A stretch of DNA of 64,000 bases from a virus, in the IMG/VR virus record IMGVR_UViG_3300017963_000011, positions 41,135 through 105,134 of that record. One strand, 5' to 3'. The notes below the pieces were generated by a model that worked only from the letters and a program-made list of their open reading frames with translations, was not told where the DNA came from and did not search any database. Of this stretch, positions 7,658 to 15,499 are shown one piece after another; position 1 is the first letter of the stretch; each line of letters opens with the position of its first letter. The position numbers were made by a program, and so were the translations under genes.

Positions 7658-8323
7658 ATGGCCGAGACGCACATCAAATTCGTCAACGACACCGTTACTC
7701 TCGGCGTCATGATGACGCGCAGGGGCACTCCGGTCACTGGCGAAACCCCCACAGTCGAGATGCGCAGAATGAGCGATGGCCGTTATTGGGATTGGAACAC
7801 GCTCGTCTGGAGCACATCACCGACTGGTACAAAAGAGGCAACCCTCGTTGAGAAAACCTGGCTTGGTGGTTTCTATACAAAGACTTGGGATCATGGAACT
7901 ACCGATCCTGATGCTCAGGGTGAATACACAGCCATCTATCGCAACGTCGGCGCTCCCAATGATTTCACCTCAATCGAGATCTTCTACTTCAGGTTTGACT
8001 GGAGCGAGGGAGCCGGTGTTATCGCTGATCAGGTTTGGGAAGAGGCCCTCGCTGACCATCTCGGTACAGCCGGCAGTGCGGCCGAGCAGCTTGCCATCGT
8101 CCGTGGCATGTGTCAGCAGAACTACATTCTTGACAACACAGTCCACAACTCCCTCGGGCTTCTCCTTGAGGGACGTATTAGAATTTTCGACACCGCTGCA
8201 AACGTGCCTGCTACTGGCGGCGGTAGCGAAACAACCGGGCTCATCGCAACTTACAACATCGAAACAACACCTGAGTCCGGTGATCAGGATCTCGTAGACA
8301 CCTATAGGGTGGTGAAAGCATAG
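7658..8323 (+). CDS. Putative virion protein
   Basis: 221 aa; IADQVWEEALADHLGTAGSAAEQL-type motif seen in phage structural proteins. Confidence 0.55.
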   Translation: MAETHIKFVNDTVTLGVMMTRRGTPVTGETPTVEMRRMSDGRYWDWNTLVWSTSPTGTKEATLVEKTWLGGFYTKTWDHGTTDPDAQGEYTAIYRNVGAPNDFTSIEIFYFRFDWSEGAGVIADQVWEEALADHLGTAGSAAEQLAIVRGMCQQNYILDNTVHNSLGLLLEGRIRIFDTAANVPATGGGSETTGLIATYNIETTPESGDQDLVDTYRVVKA

Positions 8324-8580
8324 TGTCGATTTGCCTTGCAACAAAAGGCGTCATCTGCGGTAGGAAGGAAAGGTATCTTACCTACTTTGAGGAGCCGCTT
8401 AACCTTACCGTGGTCGAGGAAGAAACCGTCGACCTTGAGGTCGTTGCCGAGGAAGAGATCGATATTGCTATTACAGAAGAGGAAGAGATCGATCTTCAAG
8501 TTACAGAGGAAGAAACGATAGAGCTTACTATCGATGAAGAGGAAGAGATTATTCTAATCGTTACCTGCTATGAAGACTGA
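8323..8580 (+). CDS. Small acidic protein with 10-aa repeats
   Basis: Six repeats of about EEEEIDLxVT; GTG start overlaps the upstream stop. Confidence 0.55.
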   Translation: MSICLATKGVICGRKERYLTYFEEPLNLTVVEEETVDLEVVAEEEIDIAITEEEEIDLQVTEEETIELTIDEEEEIILIVTCYED

Positions 8581-8606: not shown

Positions 8607-9536
8607 ATGGCGAACAAGACCGCGCTAGTAGGAACGAACCGGGTCAATAGTTCTGGCGATCCAGCAGTTCAGAACTGGAACACGGGGGATACTCTCACTG
8701 ACCCTGATGGCAATGTCATCCAGACAGGGGCTAATGCGCCATCTCCTTCTGACGCGACTCCTCAACAGGTTGGCACTGGCACTGGTCAGCCTGGAACAAG
8801 CAACGACTACTCGCGAGCCGACCATGTTCACCAGACGAACGCGCAGCCCGGCACTGCTACTCCACAAGACGTGGGCTTGACAGGTGTTGTCGGGACAGCT
8901 ACAGCTTATGCCCGCGAAGATCACGTTCACGGTGGCGCTGTCGTAGGCACTGCGGGCTATCTGGAACAGGCAGCTACGGCAGCGGTGGCCACTTACACGG
9001 TGAACAACTACTCTGTCGGTGCTGATAACTTGCTCGTGTTCGTGAATGGCGCCTACGTGCCGAAGGATCAGTATACCGAGGACAATCCAACGCAGATCAC
9101 TTTCACAACCTATCCTGGTCTTCCTTTTGTTGGTAGCGAAAAGATTGTCACATTCGTACCCAAGGGTGGTCTGGGATTGACAAATCAGCTTTGGGAAAAA
9201 CAAGTTGCTGGAGCAAGTCAAGCAGTCTTCAATCTGGCGGGTTCTTACGATGTCGGCACTCACAGTCTTCTCGTGTTTGTCGATGGGACTCTCAATCTCG
9301 TAGGCGCCAGCGAGGACTACCAAGAGACGGGTACGCAGCAAGTCACGTTCAACACTCCTCTTTCTGGTGGAGAAGAAGTCCTCTTTCTCGTTCCGCGAGG
9401 ATCTACAACCGAGAACTCTGGAGCGTACAGCGCTGGAACCCCCGGCGACTGGAATGGTGCTCCGACAACGATCGGCGATGCGCTTGATAGGCTCGCCGCA
9501 GAGCTTTCGAGACTCATCGGATATCCGATTCCGTAA
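8607..9536 (+). CDS. Tail fibre protein 1
   Basis: YSRADHVH / YAREDHVH fibre repeats, two LLVFV(N/D)G domains, shared N-terminal motif NWNTGDTLTDPDGNVI. Confidence 0.7.
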   Translation: MANKTALVGTNRVNSSGDPAVQNWNTGDTLTDPDGNVIQTGANAPSPSDATPQQVGTGTGQPGTSNDYSRADHVHQTNAQPGTATPQDVGLTGVVGTATAYAREDHVHGGAVVGTAGYLEQAATAAVATYTVNNYSVGADNLLVFVNGAYVPKDQYTEDNPTQITFTTYPGLPFVGSEKIVTFVPKGGLGLTNQLWEKQVAGASQAVFNLAGSYDVGTHSLLVFVDGTLNLVGASEDYQETGTQQVTFNTPLSGGEEVLFLVPRGSTTENSGAYSAGTPGDWNGAPTTIGDALDRLAAELSRLIGYPIP

Positions 9537-9545
9537 GGAGATGGC

Positions 9546-10310
9546 ATGGCAAACGTAATAGCGATGACTGGCAAGCCAAGCATCAACGCATCCAACGACC
9601 CTGAGCTTCGTAACTGGAACACAGGGGATACGCTGGTCACTCCTGATGGAAACGTGATCATGGTCGGTACTCCATCGAGCGCCGAATTGGCAATTCCAGA
9701 TGGGGATGCCACGCCAGATATCAGTGGTGGCGAGAACTTCAAGACTGTGAATACAGTTTTGACGACGATCACGAACTTCATCAATGGTGTCGCCGGAACC
9801 AGAATTCGCGTTAGAATCACAGACACAAATACCATCATCTCCGGTACGCTCACAAAGACGGGACGGACGATCGTATGTCTCGTCGGCGACGTCTTTGAGT
9901 GGGTTTATGATGGTGCTAGTTGGATTCAGGTCGGTGGCAATGTAGGCATGGGTGCCTACATTCGGTATCAGACTCCTATTGATGTTACTGCCGGCACCTG
10001 GATTGGCAATACTGTTATCGTTTACACAACGATTCCAATGGCTTCTTGGCTTCCTCGTCTTGGAGTGGATATGGTGCATGTGTCTTGCAAGGTGAATGCG
10101 TCGGCCGGCACACCTACTCTTTTAGCGAGAGCCGTTGGCGATACGGATAATACCCTGGCCCGCGTTGTAGCCAATTACACTACGGGTTTCTTTGGAGGCG
10201 AAGACTTCTTTGTCAAGCTGAATGATGCTGGCAATTTCGAGGCTAGATGGTGGACGGCTTTCACACCGGCTGGCTGGAACAACCTATATCTTGAAGGCAT
10301 CACACTCTAG
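9546..10310 (+). CDS. Tail fibre / receptor-binding protein 2
   Basis: N-terminus NWNTGDTLVTPDGNVI is paralogous to 8607..9536; YDGASWIQVGG fibre motif. Confidence 0.65.
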   Translation: MANVIAMTGKPSINASNDPELRNWNTGDTLVTPDGNVIMVGTPSSAELAIPDGDATPDISGGENFKTVNTVLTTITNFINGVAGTRIRVRITDTNTIISGTLTKTGRTIVCLVGDVFEWVYDGASWIQVGGNVGMGAYIRYQTPIDVTAGTWIGNTVIVYTTIPMASWLPRLGVDMVHVSCKVNASAGTPTLLARAVGDTDNTLARVVANYTTGFFGGEDFFVKLNDAGNFEARWWTAFTPAGWNNLYLEGITL

Positions 10311-10319
10311 GAGGACGAC

Positions 10320-10913
10320 ATGGCAAATATTCCTGCGCTTGCGGGCTATCAAACAGCTAACGGAGAAGCTGCTCCTGCCAAGTTCGGCGGCAGTGATGTC
10401 CTTACAGATCCTAACGGGAATGTCCTCCTGACCGCTGTCGGTGGTGCTGGTTCTATCGTGCCATTCGATACTCCAGTCATTGTCATGGCATATAACAACA
10501 CGCTCTATAGTGGAGCTACAACTGGCTCTCCATGGAACTACTCTAGCCAACACGCATTCAATGGTGTGATCGATCTTAGTGGCTTGACACCGGCAATTCC
10601 TTCTGGCGCTAAAGCTGTGATTCTGGTAACACTGGCCAATCTGTACAATACAGTGGGGGGTGCAGCGCGAGTCATTAACATGTACGCTGCCAAGCTGCAT
10701 GCTTCTCTCCCAACCGCAGCGCAATACGTCATGAGTAGCGCATACCATGTCGGTGGCGTTGCCGCTGGTGCTGAAGGAGTAGAATACGATGCCAATCCGG
10801 GTTACGGTATTGTGAATTTCAATGGTGACAGGACCGTGGCTATAGCCGCCTATTCTAACAACAGTCCAAACAATGCGTACTGGTACTGGAACGTAGCCGG
10901 GTACACGATCTAG
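10320..10913 (+). CDS. Tail fibre / receptor-binding protein 3
   Basis: N-terminus MANIPALAG...SDVLTDPNGNVL is related to the two upstream genes. Confidence 0.6.
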   Translation: MANIPALAGYQTANGEAAPAKFGGSDVLTDPNGNVLLTAVGGAGSIVPFDTPVIVMAYNNTLYSGATTGSPWNYSSQHAFNGVIDLSGLTPAIPSGAKAVILVTLANLYNTVGGAARVINMYAAKLHASLPTAAQYVMSSAYHVGGVAAGAEGVEYDANPGYGIVNFNGDRTVAIAAYSNNSPNNAYWYWNVAGYTI

Positions 10914-10915
10914 GA

Positions 10916-11446
10916 GTGAACATGCTACCAGTTTTCAAATTGATTTATGATGAGTCAACATATGAAATCGTCGACTCGGTGCCGGCGCAACCCGACAATC
11001 CTCCGTCAACTCTTGTCGACAAACCCGATGGCTTTACCTGGGACGAGCGCACTCTCTGGAAATACGACCCTACAGAAGAAGAAGTCGTCCAGAAAACCGG
11101 CCAGGAGTATGACGATGCTCTCGCGTTAATCAAAGCGAAGATCGCCTCTGATCTCGCCTTGGAGTATACCCGCAAGAACCTCGAAGACATTTTCACGGTC
11201 ATGGGCTCGATGGAGGCTATGCTCGACTGCACAAATCAGATCGTGCAGAAAGTCATGAATGAGGATACGATCACACAGGCTGAGAAGGACGCCTTCAATC
11301 TTCTCGTAAATACTTGTTCGTCCAAGTTCAAGCTAACGCTGACCAACGTTACACAAGCCATCGCCGATGGTATGAAGGCGAAGAAAGAAAAGGCCCGTGA
11401 TACCGAGACAGACATGAAGAACGATCCTAGGTGGCCGTATTCATAG
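10916..11446 (+). CDS. Putative tail-fibre assembly/chaperone protein
   Basis: Follows the fibre genes; WKYDPTEEEVVQK followed by a helical region. Confidence 0.4.
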   Translation: MNMLPVFKLIYDESTYEIVDSVPAQPDNPPSTLVDKPDGFTWDERTLWKYDPTEEEVVQKTGQEYDDALALIKAKIASDLALEYTRKNLEDIFTVMGSMEAMLDCTNQIVQKVMNEDTITQAEKDAFNLLVNTCSSKFKLTLTNVTQAIADGMKAKKEKARDTETDMKNDPRWPYS

Positions 11447-11475
11447 AGTGTAGCGCTACAACGAGGGGGTATTAA

Positions 11476-12465
11476 ATGGGAAGGGATGGGGCAGTGGCCG
11501 ATCAGATTAGAATTCTGGTCGTCGATAATGACGAAACATCTATCCAGTCTCTTCGAGACATGCTTGGTGAATATGATTTCGAGGTCGAGGACGTTCGGGA
11601 TTCTCGCAAAGTCCTAGATCATCTTCGACAAACCAATGACTATTCTCTTCTCATTCTTGACATCAACATGCCTCACAAGGATGGCGTGACGCTGGCGTCT
11701 CAGGTCAGAAATACTCTTCACTACGACACGCCTATCTTGTTCGTATCGGCTGATATCAGCAAGACCAACCTATCGCGCATTCGTAGAATGAGTCTCGGTG
11801 GCCACACCGTAGAGTTTCTGAAGAAGGGTAGCTTCAATTCAGAGATCCTCTTCAACGTAGCTATGGCCTTGATCAAGGAACGCATCTCCACAAACAACGT
11901 TTCTGAGATCAAAGGACGCGTTTCCAAGATGCAGAAATCCCAGGATGAGATCAAAGAAACAATATCTGATTTCATCCTGAAGCTGGAAGACAAGCCACTC
12001 GTGTCCATTGATCATTGCAAGGCTCAATCCGAGGAACTTGTGAAGTCCCTTCGCAAGGAGGTCATTGGCATCACCCTCGGGGAAGCTAGTAAGAAACTAG
12101 ATGAGGCACTGAAGCCTGAGCCTCTCGCTGTGAGGATTGGCGCCGCGCTCACGGAGAAGCCCCAAGCTATCGAGCCTGCTCTTGAACCAAATCTCATGTT
12201 TGCAAAGACACGCCAAGCCGCCGCATGGAAGATGGCCGTCTATTTCTTGCTCGTTATCTTTGCTGGGCTCTGCATTTTCTGGGGAAACATGTGGACCAAA
12301 GCTGATCATGCCGACGATGGGGTTCGTAAGCTAGAGATCCAGCAAAAGCAAGTTATCGATACGATGCAACAACAAACGACTGCGATGAAATCTCATTTCA
12401 GGCGTCTTCAGAAAATGTTCAAGTCCAACCCAAGCATGTGGGTTACAACCAAAACGCACCCGTAA
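11476..12465 (+). CDS. Response-regulator receiver (REC) domain fused to coiled coil and transmembrane helix
   Basis: ILVVDND, LLILDINMP..DG, PILFVSA and FLKK are the canonical REC motifs; TM segment WKMAVYFLLVIFAGLCIFW; lies directly before the endolysin. Confidence 0.85.
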   Translation: MGRDGAVADQIRILVVDNDETSIQSLRDMLGEYDFEVEDVRDSRKVLDHLRQTNDYSLLILDINMPHKDGVTLASQVRNTLHYDTPILFVSADISKTNLSRIRRMSLGGHTVEFLKKGSFNSEILFNVAMALIKERISTNNVSEIKGRVSKMQKSQDEIKETISDFILKLEDKPLVSIDHCKAQSEELVKSLRKEVIGITLGEASKKLDEALKPEPLAVRIGAALTEKPQAIEPALEPNLMFAKTRQAAAWKMAVYFLLVIFAGLCIFWGNMWTKADHADDGVRKLEIQQKQVIDTMQQQTTAMKSHFRRLQKMFKSNPSMWVTTKTHP

Positions 12466-12474
12466 GGAGGTAGC

Positions 12475-12969
12475 ATGGCACTGGTGACGAAGAACGATAT
12501 CAGGAGTACGGAGACCCATTCATACGCATTGAAAGGGCTCGGTGAAATCCGATACGTCGATCTCCCCCGTGGCTACATCAAGATCATCAACGACTTCCCA
12601 CAGAAGTGCCTCATCAGAGAGACCTTTCCCATCATCGGCACGAAGTACGTCCACAAGGTGATGGCTCCAATGCTGATGAAGGTGATGGAGTTCATCCGCC
12701 ACAAGGTCGAGTACGATGCGGAATGGGAGTACATCCTTCACGGGAGCATCTTCAATCCGAGGCACATGTGGTATCACAAGAACAAGCCGATCTCGATGCA
12801 TGCTTTCGCGGCTGCGGTCGACATCAATCCATGGGAGAACCAGCCCGGAACGCCCGGCACCATCCCCCAACATATCATCCACCTGTTCGAGTCCAATGGT
12901 TTCAAGTGGCTCGGGCACATGGATCGACCCGACCCGATGCACTTCGAGGTGGACATCGATAAGCTCTAA
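12475..12969 (+). CDS. Endolysin, peptidase M15 family
   Basis: FNPR, SMHAFAAAVDIN (SxH...D), GFKWLG and DPMHFE Zn-peptidase motifs; AAGGAGG SD. Confidence 0.85.
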   Translation: MALVTKNDIRSTETHSYALKGLGEIRYVDLPRGYIKIINDFPQKCLIRETFPIIGTKYVHKVMAPMLMKVMEFIRHKVEYDAEWEYILHGSIFNPRHMWYHKNKPISMHAFAAAVDINPWENQPGTPGTIPQHIIHLFESNGFKWLGHMDRPDPMHFEVDIDKL

Positions 12970-12991
12970 ATCAAAAGTTCCAACATTTATC

Positions 12992-13020
12992 TTGCAACAT
13001 CCTCCGGGGTGTTGTATCTT
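12992..13020 (+). promoter_or_regulatory. Sigma70-like promoter
   Basis: TTGCAA-17 bp-TATCTT just upstream of 13043. Confidence 0.5.
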
Positions 13021-13042
13021 TTACGGCAGAAAGGGGGTGAGC

Positions 13043-13429
13043 ATGGCAGAGGAGAAAAAGTACAGTCCGTGGGAGAGCGTGATCTGGCATTTTCGTTCTC
13101 GGAAATCCAGGCTTGCCATGGCAGCGGTGATCGCGATAATCCTTGCCAACAGTAAGTGGGTTCAGAGCAAACTCAGCCTCGATCCCTCCACCATCCCGGC
13201 ACTGTCCCAGAACATCGTGATCTGTCTCGGCATCATCATCGCTGCCGTCTCAGGAGAGAAGATCATGATGAACGGTAACGGAAATGGGAAGACGCCCGAT
13301 CCCAAAGAGGGAGTCACACTCAGCGTGGAATCCGTTGTCGACTTGAAGCTCAAGGAGAAGTTACACGAGGAACTCGAAAAGGGCCTCGACAAACTGACTG
13401 ACAAGATCAAGGAGAAACTCAACAAATGA
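13043..13429 (+). CDS. Holin-like membrane protein
   Basis: RSRK followed by two hydrophobic segments and a charged C-terminus; next to the endolysin. Confidence 0.55.
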   Translation: MAEEKKYSPWESVIWHFRSRKSRLAMAAVIAIILANSKWVQSKLSLDPSTIPALSQNIVICLGIIIAAVSGEKIMMNGNGNGKTPDPKEGVTLSVESVVDLKLKEKLHEELEKGLDKLTDKIKEKLNK

Positions 13430-13809
13430 TGACCCTGAAGGCCGCAGAAAAGAAGGGCTACGTTCCGACCAAGATCCAGATCGAGGTGCTCATGCACCCC
13501 GAGACAGGCAACATCCTCTATCCCTGCGACGGCTGCGTGACCAAGGCGTATGACACCTACGCCATCATCTCCGACCCCCTCTACAACGACGACGGCAAGA
13601 AGGAAGACAAGGTGGTCAACCTCGTCTGCAAGAAGCACAAGAAGCGCTACCAGAAACCCTCGGCTCCGACGTTCGAGGGCATGGTTCGCCTCAACCTTCA
13701 GATGCTCGTCGGCAAGAAGTGGGAGAAGATCTCCCAGGCCATGGTCAAGCGCATGCGCAAAAGCCAGGGCTGGTTCGACTGGCTCTACCCGGAGGACGAC
13801 GACGAATGA
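13426..13809 (+). CDS. Hypothetical protein
   Basis: ATGA overlap with the upstream gene; CDGC...CKKH. Confidence 0.6.
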   Translation: MMTLKAAEKKGYVPTKIQIEVLMHPETGNILYPCDGCVTKAYDTYAIISDPLYNDDGKKEDKVVNLVCKKHKKRYQKPSAPTFEGMVRLNLQMLVGKKWEKISQAMVKRMRKSQGWFDWLYPEDDDE

Positions 13810-13844
13810 CTGGCCAGATTTGAGATCAAGGTCAGGTTCTAGGA

Positions 13845-13874
13845 AGCCGGGGCGCAAGGCCCCGGCTCTTTCTT
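13845..13874 (+). terminator. Intrinsic terminator between convergent modules
   Basis: AGCCGGGGC-GCAAG-GCCCCGGCT followed by CTTTCTT. Confidence 0.65.
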
Positions 13875-14481
13875 ATCCCATCTTCTTTTGGATTTCTGCG
13901 ATCTCAGCCGCGACTTGTTGGTCGCTCTTAGCAGCTTTGGCCTTGAAGATCTCAGATGGGCTCATCGGTTCGCCACACTCGCCTACGACTACGCACTTGG
14001 CGTAGTACATCTTAGCCTGCTTCGAGATGTGTTCGAGGTTGGTCTCATACATGTCCTGGATCTTCTTCCAACCATCGTAATCCATACCGAGAATGTGGCA
14101 GTATTCTAGCATGGGTATGTGCTCTTGTGTGAGCTTGTTCATCGCTTTGACGAAGTTGCCCAGGACTTCTATGAAACGCATGATCGACTTGACGGTGAAA
14201 CGCTCGGCGGCCAGTGTAATCTTGGCGTCATCCGTGATGCGCAGATTGCACTTGACGCACTTGAGCTTGCCCTTCTTGATCTGTTCATCGGTGTATGTTC
14301 TAGGCTTGTAGCCACGGTGGTAGATCAATGCTCCCACGAGCAGACGCCCTTTCTCGGGCTTCTTGGCGTAGCAGAAGGCTTCCTCTTTACATTGGCTGCA
14401 TTCGGCATAGAACTTCATGCGTTTCATCATCTGTTCTGCAATTTGTTGGACTTGGGGACCGAGGTTGGGAGGAATTGCCAT
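13873..14481 (-). CDS. Hypothetical protein with CxxC pairs
   Basis: 202 aa; CSQC and CVKC. Confidence 0.6.
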   Translation of the reverse strand: MAIPPNLGPQVQQIAEQMMKRMKFYAECSQCKEEAFCYAKKPEKGRLLVGALIYHRGYKPRTYTDEQIKKGKLKCVKCNLRITDDAKITLAAERFTVKSIMRFIEVLGNFVKAMNKLTQEHIPMLEYCHILGMDYDGWKKIQDMYETNLEHISKQAKMYYAKCVVVGECGEPMSPSEIFKAKAAKSDQQVAAEIAEIQKKMG

Positions 14482-14488
14482 GGTAGCG

Positions 14489-15499
14489 CTACCACTCTTT
14501 CAGTAGTGAGTCCCAATCACTTGAGGCTCGTCTCTTGTTTACGATATGGACGGAATTCTTGACACAGCGCAAGAATTCTTGCGCTGTTTTCAGATCATCG
14601 GCATCTTTGCCATCCGGGAAGATTATTCTTGTGATACTCTCGACTTCCCCCGAGAGTTCTTTGATCATATCCGCAGCACCATCGTTACCTGCCTCGTCGT
14701 TATCGAGGGCTATGAAGACGCTGCTCCAGTTCTCTAGGATAAGAGCAAGGTGGTCGTCCGACGCCACTGCTCCGAAAATGGCAATGGCCGACTTGAAACC
14801 GAATACCGAAAGACGGATGACATCGAGAGGGCCTTCGCAGACAATAACGTATGGAGATCCTTTTGCGCGGTCGAAGTTGTATAGGATGCGGTTGCGGGGC
14901 AGACCCGGCTGGTGATCCCACTTGCCCAGATACGCTTCCTTTCGTATGTCTCGGGCTGTAAAGCCTCTAAGCTCTCCATCAAAGTGAACAGGAAAGAAAA
15001 CGTAATCCGGCCGAGTTCGATCGTAGGAGACGCCAAAGGGACGAAGATCTTTGTTTCGATAACGTCGAGTTTTGGGCCACGGATGATTCCTCGGCATGGG
15101 CTCCAGTGTTCGCGGCCACTCGAAAACGGGAAGGGGTCCATCATCATCCTCTTCTGATACGTCAGGAATGTTCTTGATAATCTGAGCCCACGAGAGTTGC
15201 TCTTTTTGGAAATTGGCTAGGATCTCCAGAGCATGTTCTCGTGAACAGTCAATGCCAGTGAGCTTCTTCTCCATCAACTGAATGAACCGTATGAATTTGC
15301 CACCACCGCACTTCGGCTTGCCTCTCTCTTTAGCAAAACATTTCCATTTGCCATTGTGGCGATTGATCGAGAAGTTGAGGGGCGTCTTGCCACTACTCTC
15401 ATGGAGGGGACACTTGCAGTAGATGTTCTTGTTTGACGTGTTGTCCTTGAGGACGTCAACGAAGTAATGATCGAGGATCTCACGTACAGGCTGGCTCAT
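14489..15499 (-). CDS. dnaG: DNA primase (CHC2 zinc finger plus TOPRIM)
   Basis: CPLH...WKCF...CGGG zinc finger; CEGPLD, ALDNDEAG and GKDAD TOPRIM motifs. Confidence 0.9.
   Translation of the reverse strand: MSQPVREILDHYFVDVLKDNTSNKNIYCKCPLHESSGKTPLNFSINRHNGKWKCFAKERGKPKCGGGKFIRFIQLMEKKLTGIDCSREHALEILANFQKEQLSWAQIIKNIPDVSEEDDDGPLPVFEWPRTLEPMPRNHPWPKTRRYRNKDLRPFGVSYDRTRPDYVFFPVHFDGELRGFTARDIRKEAYLGKWDHQPGLPRNRILYNFDRAKGSPYVIVCEGPLDVIRLSVFGFKSAIAIFGAVASDDHLALILENWSSVFIALDNDEAGNDGAADMIKELSGEVESITRIIFPDGKDADDLKTAQEFLRCVKNSVHIVNKRRASSDWDSLLKEW

Follow-up and report, generated by a model that had tools for sequence, protein, structure and literature searches.

The time at which a phage lyses its host largely determines its burst size and fitness. 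The known inputs to lysis timing are holin accumulation and membrane potential, with superinfection as a further signal in T4 and N4. Two-component signalling is known to reach holin-like systems through transcription, as in the action of LytSR on lrgAB/cidAB and in the PhoB-like regulation of the lysis cassette of Yersinia entomophaga (PMC4830213, PMC10101115). In our literature search, the only two-component control that came up was transcriptional and acted on cellular holin-like systems; no paper on receivers encoded within phage lysis cassettes was found. Here we describe a 329-residue protein, REC-TM, in which a receiver (REC) domain is carried on a single transmembrane (TM) helix and whose gene lies directly upstream of an endolysin gene. 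The DNA analysed (the window, 64,000 nucleotides) comprises bases 41135–105134 of a complete uncultured phage of 105,134 bp with direct terminal repeats (IMG/VR record IMGVR_UViG_3300017963_000011). An earlier reading of the letters alone (the original prediction) had described a receiver fused to a holin-like membrane protein and proposed that host phosphorylation might gate lysis timing. As a whole the observation was confirmed, and its interpretation was partly supported. The span of 11476–12969, taken there as one feature, covers two genes: REC-TM (11476–12465) and an M15 endolysin (12475–12969), both on the + strand.

Receiver domain and membrane module of REC-TM

The REC-TM gene is preceded by a Shine–Dalgarno sequence (GAGGGGG, 11463–11469) and encodes, in order, a receiver domain, a helical stalk, a linker, a single TM helix, and a short tail. 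The receiver domain (residues 10–125; 11503–11850, + strand, as are all parts of the protein below) is genuine. Pfam Response_reg (PF00072) matched residues 13–101 with an E-value of 8.5e-16 (58.5 bits, against a gathering cut-off of 30.2), and a phmmer search of the PDB matched CheY (E = 3e-9). The AlphaFold2 (AF2) model has a (beta-alpha)5 fold, five strands alternating with helices, with a predicted local distance difference test score (pLDDT) of ~86 across the domain. Its top Foldseek matches were CheY4 (TMt 0.86, root-mean-square deviation 2.1 Å), WspR, RssB, and EutV. The named response-regulator subfamilies in NCBIfam (OmpR, NarL, NtrC, CheY, etc.) were not reached; the best score was 47 bits against cut-offs of at least 180, and it covered the REC part only.

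The original prediction listed a full set of catalytic residues, and most of that set stands. D62 and S91 were recovered both in the alignment with CheY and in the family rows, and K117 in the family rows; the acidic pair read from VVDND consists of D17 and N18 rather than two aspartates. In the CheY alignment, D17 corresponds to D12, N18 to D13, and D62 to D57, and FVSAD, which contains S91, faces CheY MVTAE, the segment that we take to hold T87. The phospho-acceptor D62, at the end of beta3, is kept in every family row spanning that column, and S91, at the end of beta4, is invariant across the REC-bearing rows. K117 is found in all of these rows (9/9); it sits in VEFLKKG at the end of beta5, which we read as the counterpart of the usual DDYLxKP motif. 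The strands are assigned from the AF2 model. The second residue of the acidic pocket is N18 in the window phage, and the pair is DD in each of the seven homologues in which the N-terminus of the REC domain is present (7/7).

No DNA-binding or other output domain was found in the protein with Pfam, PHROGs, NCBIfam, or PADLOC. The best 19-residue hydropathy window (residues 250–268, Kyte–Doolittle value 2.13) marks the only hydrophobic helix, and on both counts the original prediction was right. By eye this TM helix runs over residues ~250–272 (12223–12291) and is predicted to be N-in/C-out; in most family members the N-side flank is the richer in K/R. These features fit a topology in which REC domain, stalk, and linker would be cytoplasmic, one helix would cross the inner membrane, and ~57 residues would be periplasmic.

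The stalk (residues 126–172; 11851–11991) continues alpha5 of the receiver, and the AF2 helix spans residues 122–172. Foldseek alignments to WspR, RssB, and EutV extended past the ~125-residue REC core, to 157–199 columns, and were the longest obtained. The cytoplasmic linker that follows (residues 173–247; 11992–12216) is modelled by AF2 as low-confidence helices, with Cys181 in nine of the ten aligned family rows and Pro238 in all of them. Beyond the membrane, the predicted periplasmic helical tail has 57 residues (273–329; 12292–12462), within a family range of 48–90. In the family alignment W273, A276, A279, V283, and L286 of the tail are near-conserved and Q300 is invariant. Mean pairwise identity was 32–34% over the TM and juxtamembrane segments, compared with 23–27% over stalk and linker. 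The coiled coils said to flank the TM helix fared less well. They correspond to long predicted helices, and in a crude comparison with shuffled sequence the heptad a/d occupancy of the two helices was at most 6/8, against a shuffled mean of 5.7. A coiled coil is not demonstrated, because this occupancy is no better than that of the shuffled sequence.

Relatives of REC-TM are few. A search of 5.8 billion clustered proteins returned four, at 29–47% identity, and residues 135–329 alone, run exhaustively with HMMER against 1.84 billion representatives, added only P0007 and P0006. The family as we define it comprises ten proteins, all metagenomic, including two cluster members and a protein from a JGI contig (L001). 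P0006 (185 residues, from a contig of 1,533 bp) lacks the REC domain and has TM helix, tail, and linker, the last with its Cys. The membrane module thus appears able to stand alone, and the REC domain looks like an input added onto it.

No relatives were found in IMG/VR with the family alignment, the endolysin, P0006, P0007, or P0013 as queries, and a scan of IMG/VR with the phage primase gave distant loci only. No family members were found in the viral and genome collections scanned. The metagenome scan returned one true relative (L001), and the fifteen other loci encode common soluble regulators of bacteria that lack a TM helix; the same holds for all four loci from the scan of genome contigs for REC-TM. 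With the endolysin as query, the genome-contig scan gave no match. For the C-terminal module we found no match in cultured phages, only family members among the 1.84 billion representatives, and nothing usable in the ESM Atlas. A tblastn search of the cultured phages with the whole protein produced REC-level matches only. Two of the matched records, OQ572403.1 (‘Pseudomonas phage Y1’, L020) and MT835753.1 (a faecal scaffold, L021), look like bacterial DNA because the first holds a chemotaxis-type cluster and the second a response-regulator/kinase pair.

Linkage to lysis genes

The late operon ends in four closely packed genes, encoding REC-TM, the M15 endolysin, a protein with two TM helices, and a 127-residue protein. 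The 164-residue endolysin matched Peptidase_M15_4 (E = 2.2e-10, 41.4 bits against a cut-off of 25), and its zinc-ligand motif H-x6-D ... H (H109, D116, H156) is conserved in the L001 homologue. As originally predicted, its start lies exactly 9 nt beyond the REC-TM stop; this interval contains a Shine–Dalgarno sequence (AAGGAGG). On L001 (1,928 bp) the REC-TM, M15, and two-TM genes stand in identical order, with protein identities of 38–47%, and the first two are 8 nt apart. In addition, M15 homologues P0019 and P0020 pair up with family members P0009 and P0003 on contigs of equal size (4,787 and 2,267 bp). The REC-TM/M15 pair is thus placed on four contigs: it was read directly on two of them and is deduced from equal contig size for the other two. 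Recurrence of the fused gene beside endolysins was one of the checks proposed with the original prediction; beyond the window, it was read directly on L001 and inferred for the two size-matched contigs.

The label ‘holin-like’ for REC-TM was not borne out. No holin family matched the protein in Pfam or PHROGs at E-values up to 1, or in the cultured phages. With 329 residues, ~250 of them cytoplasmic and N-terminal, and a C-terminal tail predicted to be periplasmic, it is unlike the known small holins with a charged cytoplasmic C-terminus. Its gene does show the adjacency to an endolysin by which holins are recognised (9 nt, and 8 nt in L001). The endolysin has no signal sequence or signal-anchor-release (SAR) segment and therefore needs a large-hole holin. 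The two-TM open reading frame (ORF; 13043–13429, + strand, 128 residues) has textbook holin features, with two hydrophobic helices set between a basic N-terminal end and a highly charged C-terminal end, and is conserved in L001, P0012, and P0013. It belongs to no Pfam or PHROG family, and its neighbours in the ESM Atlas were unnamed small phage proteins only. Judged by these sequence features, it is a better holin candidate than REC-TM.

Receiver genes also recur beside lysis genes in cultured Alteromonas phages, in split form. In R9Y2 a 121-residue protein with an N-terminal TM helix is followed by a 150-residue REC protein (Pfam E = 1.8e-23) and a GH108 endolysin; the starts overlap, and the end of the REC gene overlaps the endolysin start. 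XX1924 encodes a 101-residue helical protein whose TM helix is C-terminal, followed by the REC protein (‘response regulator’, L028 2044–2457), DUF5675, and a GTA_holin_3TM holin. The order in R8W is a holin (phrog_1356), a TM-helical protein, the REC protein, and a membrane protein. R8W gp48 was published as a ‘PhoB’ metabolic gene (PMC8228385). Its product (L026 4492–4953) has 153 residues and by Pfam consists of a receiver domain only, without a DNA-binding domain. The gene, located between those of the holin and the small terminase, is start-overlapped with the gene for a one-helix membrane protein. On this evidence, its annotation as a DNA-binding response regulator or PhoB is unsupported.

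What these phages (R9Y2 gp12/gp13; XX1924; R8W/H4 gp48/gp47) share with the window phage is a kinase-less receiver among the lysis genes at the end of the late operon. Theirs has the DD, D, S, and K residues intact, and its gene is start-overlapped with that of a one-helix membrane protein whose helical domain is predicted to be cytoplasmic. Receiver and membrane protein are two genes there and one chain in the window phage. The identity of the receivers to that of REC-TM is only ~26%, the lysis enzymes are GH108 and DUF5675 rather than M15, and the membrane parts are not homologous to the C-terminal module of REC-TM (hhalign probability <3%). Both the REC and the partner genes are uncharacterised. 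The likeness is limited to architecture and position, and the split modules are analogous rather than homologous.

A possible phosphorylation input to lysis

The reading that we favour, tentatively, is that REC-TM responds to phosphorylation and regulates the membrane step of lysis. The two-TM protein would form the hole, and REC-TM would regulate that step as an antiholin, a holin activator, or a co-holin. A host histidine kinase or acetyl-phosphate would phosphorylate D62, which would re-pair the receivers and stalks, as in regulators of the WspR/EutV/NtrC1 type. The new pairing would alter how the TM helix and juxtamembrane segments associate with themselves or with the holin, and lysis time would then track the phosphorylation state of the host. 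Neither HisKA nor HATPase_c was found in the complete phage genome, and therefore any phosphoryl donor must be the host's.

Several lines of evidence point in this direction. The receiver fold is genuine and its phospho-acceptor residues are conserved family-wide, and in the AF2 model the stalk helix continues alpha5, an arrangement known from regulators whose control runs through a dimeric stalk. The greater conservation of the TM and juxtamembrane segments than of stalk and linker is consistent with it, as are the cassette order, kept in L001 with a junction of 8–9 nt, and the deduced presence of REC-TM and M15 homologues together on the two size-matched contigs. P0006, without its receiver, suggests that the REC domain is an added input. 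The absence of a kinase from the complete phage and the independent analogues in R9Y2, XX1924, and R8W also argue for it. Because the split module occurs in these three cultured phages, the idea is testable now by ordinary phage genetics.

Other observations weigh against this reading. N18 replaces the second aspartate of the pocket and, to judge from CheY mutants of Asp13, may lower phosphorylation. The family is small and represents one phage lineage, and the synteny may be mere shared descent. No M15 homologue matches the contig sizes of P0004, P0005, and P0007 (12,034, 4,304, and 17,293 bp). A related 103-kb contig (103,369 bp) has a two-TM homologue (P0013), and no REC-TM family member is recorded for that size. 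Outside the receiver, no homology of the protein to lysis proteins of any kind, or to its counterparts among the partner proteins of the Alteromonas phages, could be detected. The original prediction had also called its idea consistent with a phage that reads host signalling through sigma-54; a link to the sigma-54 cassettes is pure speculation, and we found nothing bearing on it.

One alternative, which we consider unlikely, is that REC-TM is a membrane-tethered phosphate sink or decoy. It would drain or block a host membrane histidine kinase (e.g. one linked to envelope stress or defence) late in infection, and its place among lysis genes would be incidental. Single-domain receivers are established as phosphate sinks in bacteria (CheY1 of Sinorhizobium), and REC-TM, an orphan receiver that lacks an output domain in a phage that lacks a kinase, would suit such a role, with the membrane anchor bringing it near host kinases. 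However, the close coupling to the endolysin is conserved, REC genes recur within the lysis clusters of unrelated cultured phages, and the conservation of TM helix and tail exceeds the needs of a simple anchor.

It is more doubtful that REC-TM is itself the holin, a class III-like protein with a single transmembrane domain (TMD) gated by its cytoplasmic receiver, with the two-TM protein as antiholin or accessory. The gene does occupy the classic holin slot, directly 5' of the endolysin and coupled to it, and M15 co-occurs with REC-TM on all four contigs that can be checked (4/4). The two-TM family, moreover, is also found on the 103-kb contig, for which neither an M15 nor a REC-TM relative is recorded. 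Holins with one TMD, N-in/C-out topology, and a regulatory region in the cytoplasm have been reported, with N4 gp63 described as a protein of this kind (PMC12642591). Against these points, REC-TM matches no holin family, its 329 residues far exceed the length of known holins, and the soluble endolysin needs a large-hole holin, a role for which the two-TM ORF has the textbook features.

Less probable again is a scaffold that works independently of phosphorylation, like a pseudo-receiver, in which the REC fold would only mediate dimerisation or the binding of a lysis or envelope protein. Bacteria commonly have pseudo-receivers, and the D17-N18 pair of the window phage in place of DD would be in keeping with one. 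The homologues with an intact REC N-terminus nevertheless all have DD, D62 is present in every covering row, and S91 and K117 are present in every REC-bearing row. Because these three residues are kept across the family, we argue that there is selection on phosphotransfer chemistry.

We reject a role for REC-TM as an i-spanin-like or other outer-envelope disruption component as very improbable: although its TM helix and tail weakly match phrog_312 (Rz-like spanin; E = 0.016–0.09, not significant) and the cassette otherwise has no recognisable spanin, no lipobox ORF for an o-spanin, embedded or separate, was found in 10800–13900 on the + strand, and a tail of 48–90 residues was judged too short to span the periplasm as does Rz, which has ~130 periplasmic residues.

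If the favoured reading of REC-TM as a phosphorylation-sensitive regulator is extended, some tailed phages may, within the lysis cassette, fuse a bacterial phospho-receiver to a membrane helix or pair it with one, and so give holin triggering a post-translational input, with the host's kinase or acetyl-phosphate state setting the moment of lysis. We hold this broader proposal with less confidence than the reading of the single protein. If true, it would constitute a new class of lysis-timing control, of which the window protein would be the fused form. A receiver in the lysis cassette would link the two-component and acetyl-phosphate state of the host directly to the lysis clock, and phages would thereby have a means to read the host's physiology at the final stage of infection.

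Surrounding operon and comparison with known regulators

Upstream of REC-TM in the + strand late operon are three tail-fibre-like ORFs (8607–10913), followed by a 176-residue ORF. The three (8607–9536, 9546–10310, and 10320–10913) are alike over ~35 N-terminal residues (...NWNTGDTL(T/V)(D/T)PDGNVI...) and then wholly divergent, and none has a Pfam or PHROG family. They look like a common anchor with three different receptor-binding heads. Acidic repeats with the pattern EEE-x-(I/V)-(D/E)-L make up most of an 85-residue ORF at 8323–8580.

Between the stop of the 176-residue ORF and the ribosome site of REC-TM lies a 12-bp palindrome, TGTAGCGCTACA (11449–11460), which is one copy of a genome-wide repeat, GTAGCGCTAC. 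L001 has a different palindrome, TCGTATCTGATACGA, at positions 54–68, likewise directly 5' of the REC-TM ribosome site. A 10-bp hairpin followed by UCUUUU (12993–13016, + strand) separates the endolysin stop from the ribosome site of the two-TM gene. At the equivalent site L001 has an 11-bp hairpin with UUUU (1560–1589; local fold z -2.5) that differs in sequence from the window hairpin. The hairpin between the two genes could act as a partial terminator that sets the endolysin-to-holin ratio.

The fourth of the closely packed genes (13426–13809, + strand, 127 residues) overlaps the two-TM gene at its start (ATGA) and encodes a soluble protein with a CxxC...CxxH pattern (CDGC ... CKKH), possibly a small zinc-binding protein. 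No family was found for it in Pfam, PHROGs, or NCBIfam, and it may be the fourth gene of the lysis cassette. A strong intrinsic terminator (13845–13867, + strand) closes the late operon, with a 9-bp stem containing 8 G-C pairs and a local fold of -33.4 kcal/mol (z -2.9). Beyond it begin the minus-strand replication genes, including a primase (14489–15499).

Among known lysis regulators, the nearest in kind are those of T4 lysis inhibition (holin T with antiholins RI and RIII) and N4 gp62/gp63, in which a membrane-level regulator times holin triggering upon a signal. They have no sequence relationship to REC-TM, and their signal is superinfection, not phosphorylation. The ‘Receiver domain’ of the N4 system was discarded as a parallel, as it shares the name only and is not a two-component REC domain. 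The divergent cREC of jumbo phages was also set aside as not relevant, being tied to NAD+ systems. In the LytSR and Yersinia entomophaga systems, two-component signalling likewise feeds holin/antiholin-like systems. There the control is transcriptional and cellular, whereas the receiver in the window is physically within a phage membrane protein.

On the side of the receiver, WspR (3bre), EutV (6ww6), and RssB (3f7a) also have a REC domain followed by a long helix continuous with alpha5, and NtrC1 and DctD are likewise controlled through a helical stalk after alpha5. The outputs of WspR, EutV, and RssB are cytoplasmic and are enzymatic, RNA-binding, or adaptor in nature, in contrast to the TM helix and short external tail of REC-TM. 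CheY, the best match of the window receiver in both sequence and fold, resembles it together with Spo0F, DivK, and CpdR in having no enzymatic or DNA-binding output, so that all must act by protein contact. Those proteins are soluble, have ~120 residues, and have cognate kinases in their own genomes, whereas REC-TM is membrane-anchored, phage-encoded, and kinase-less. REC-TM is a new architectural variant of two known kinds of protein, the single-domain receivers and, putatively, the lysis regulators.

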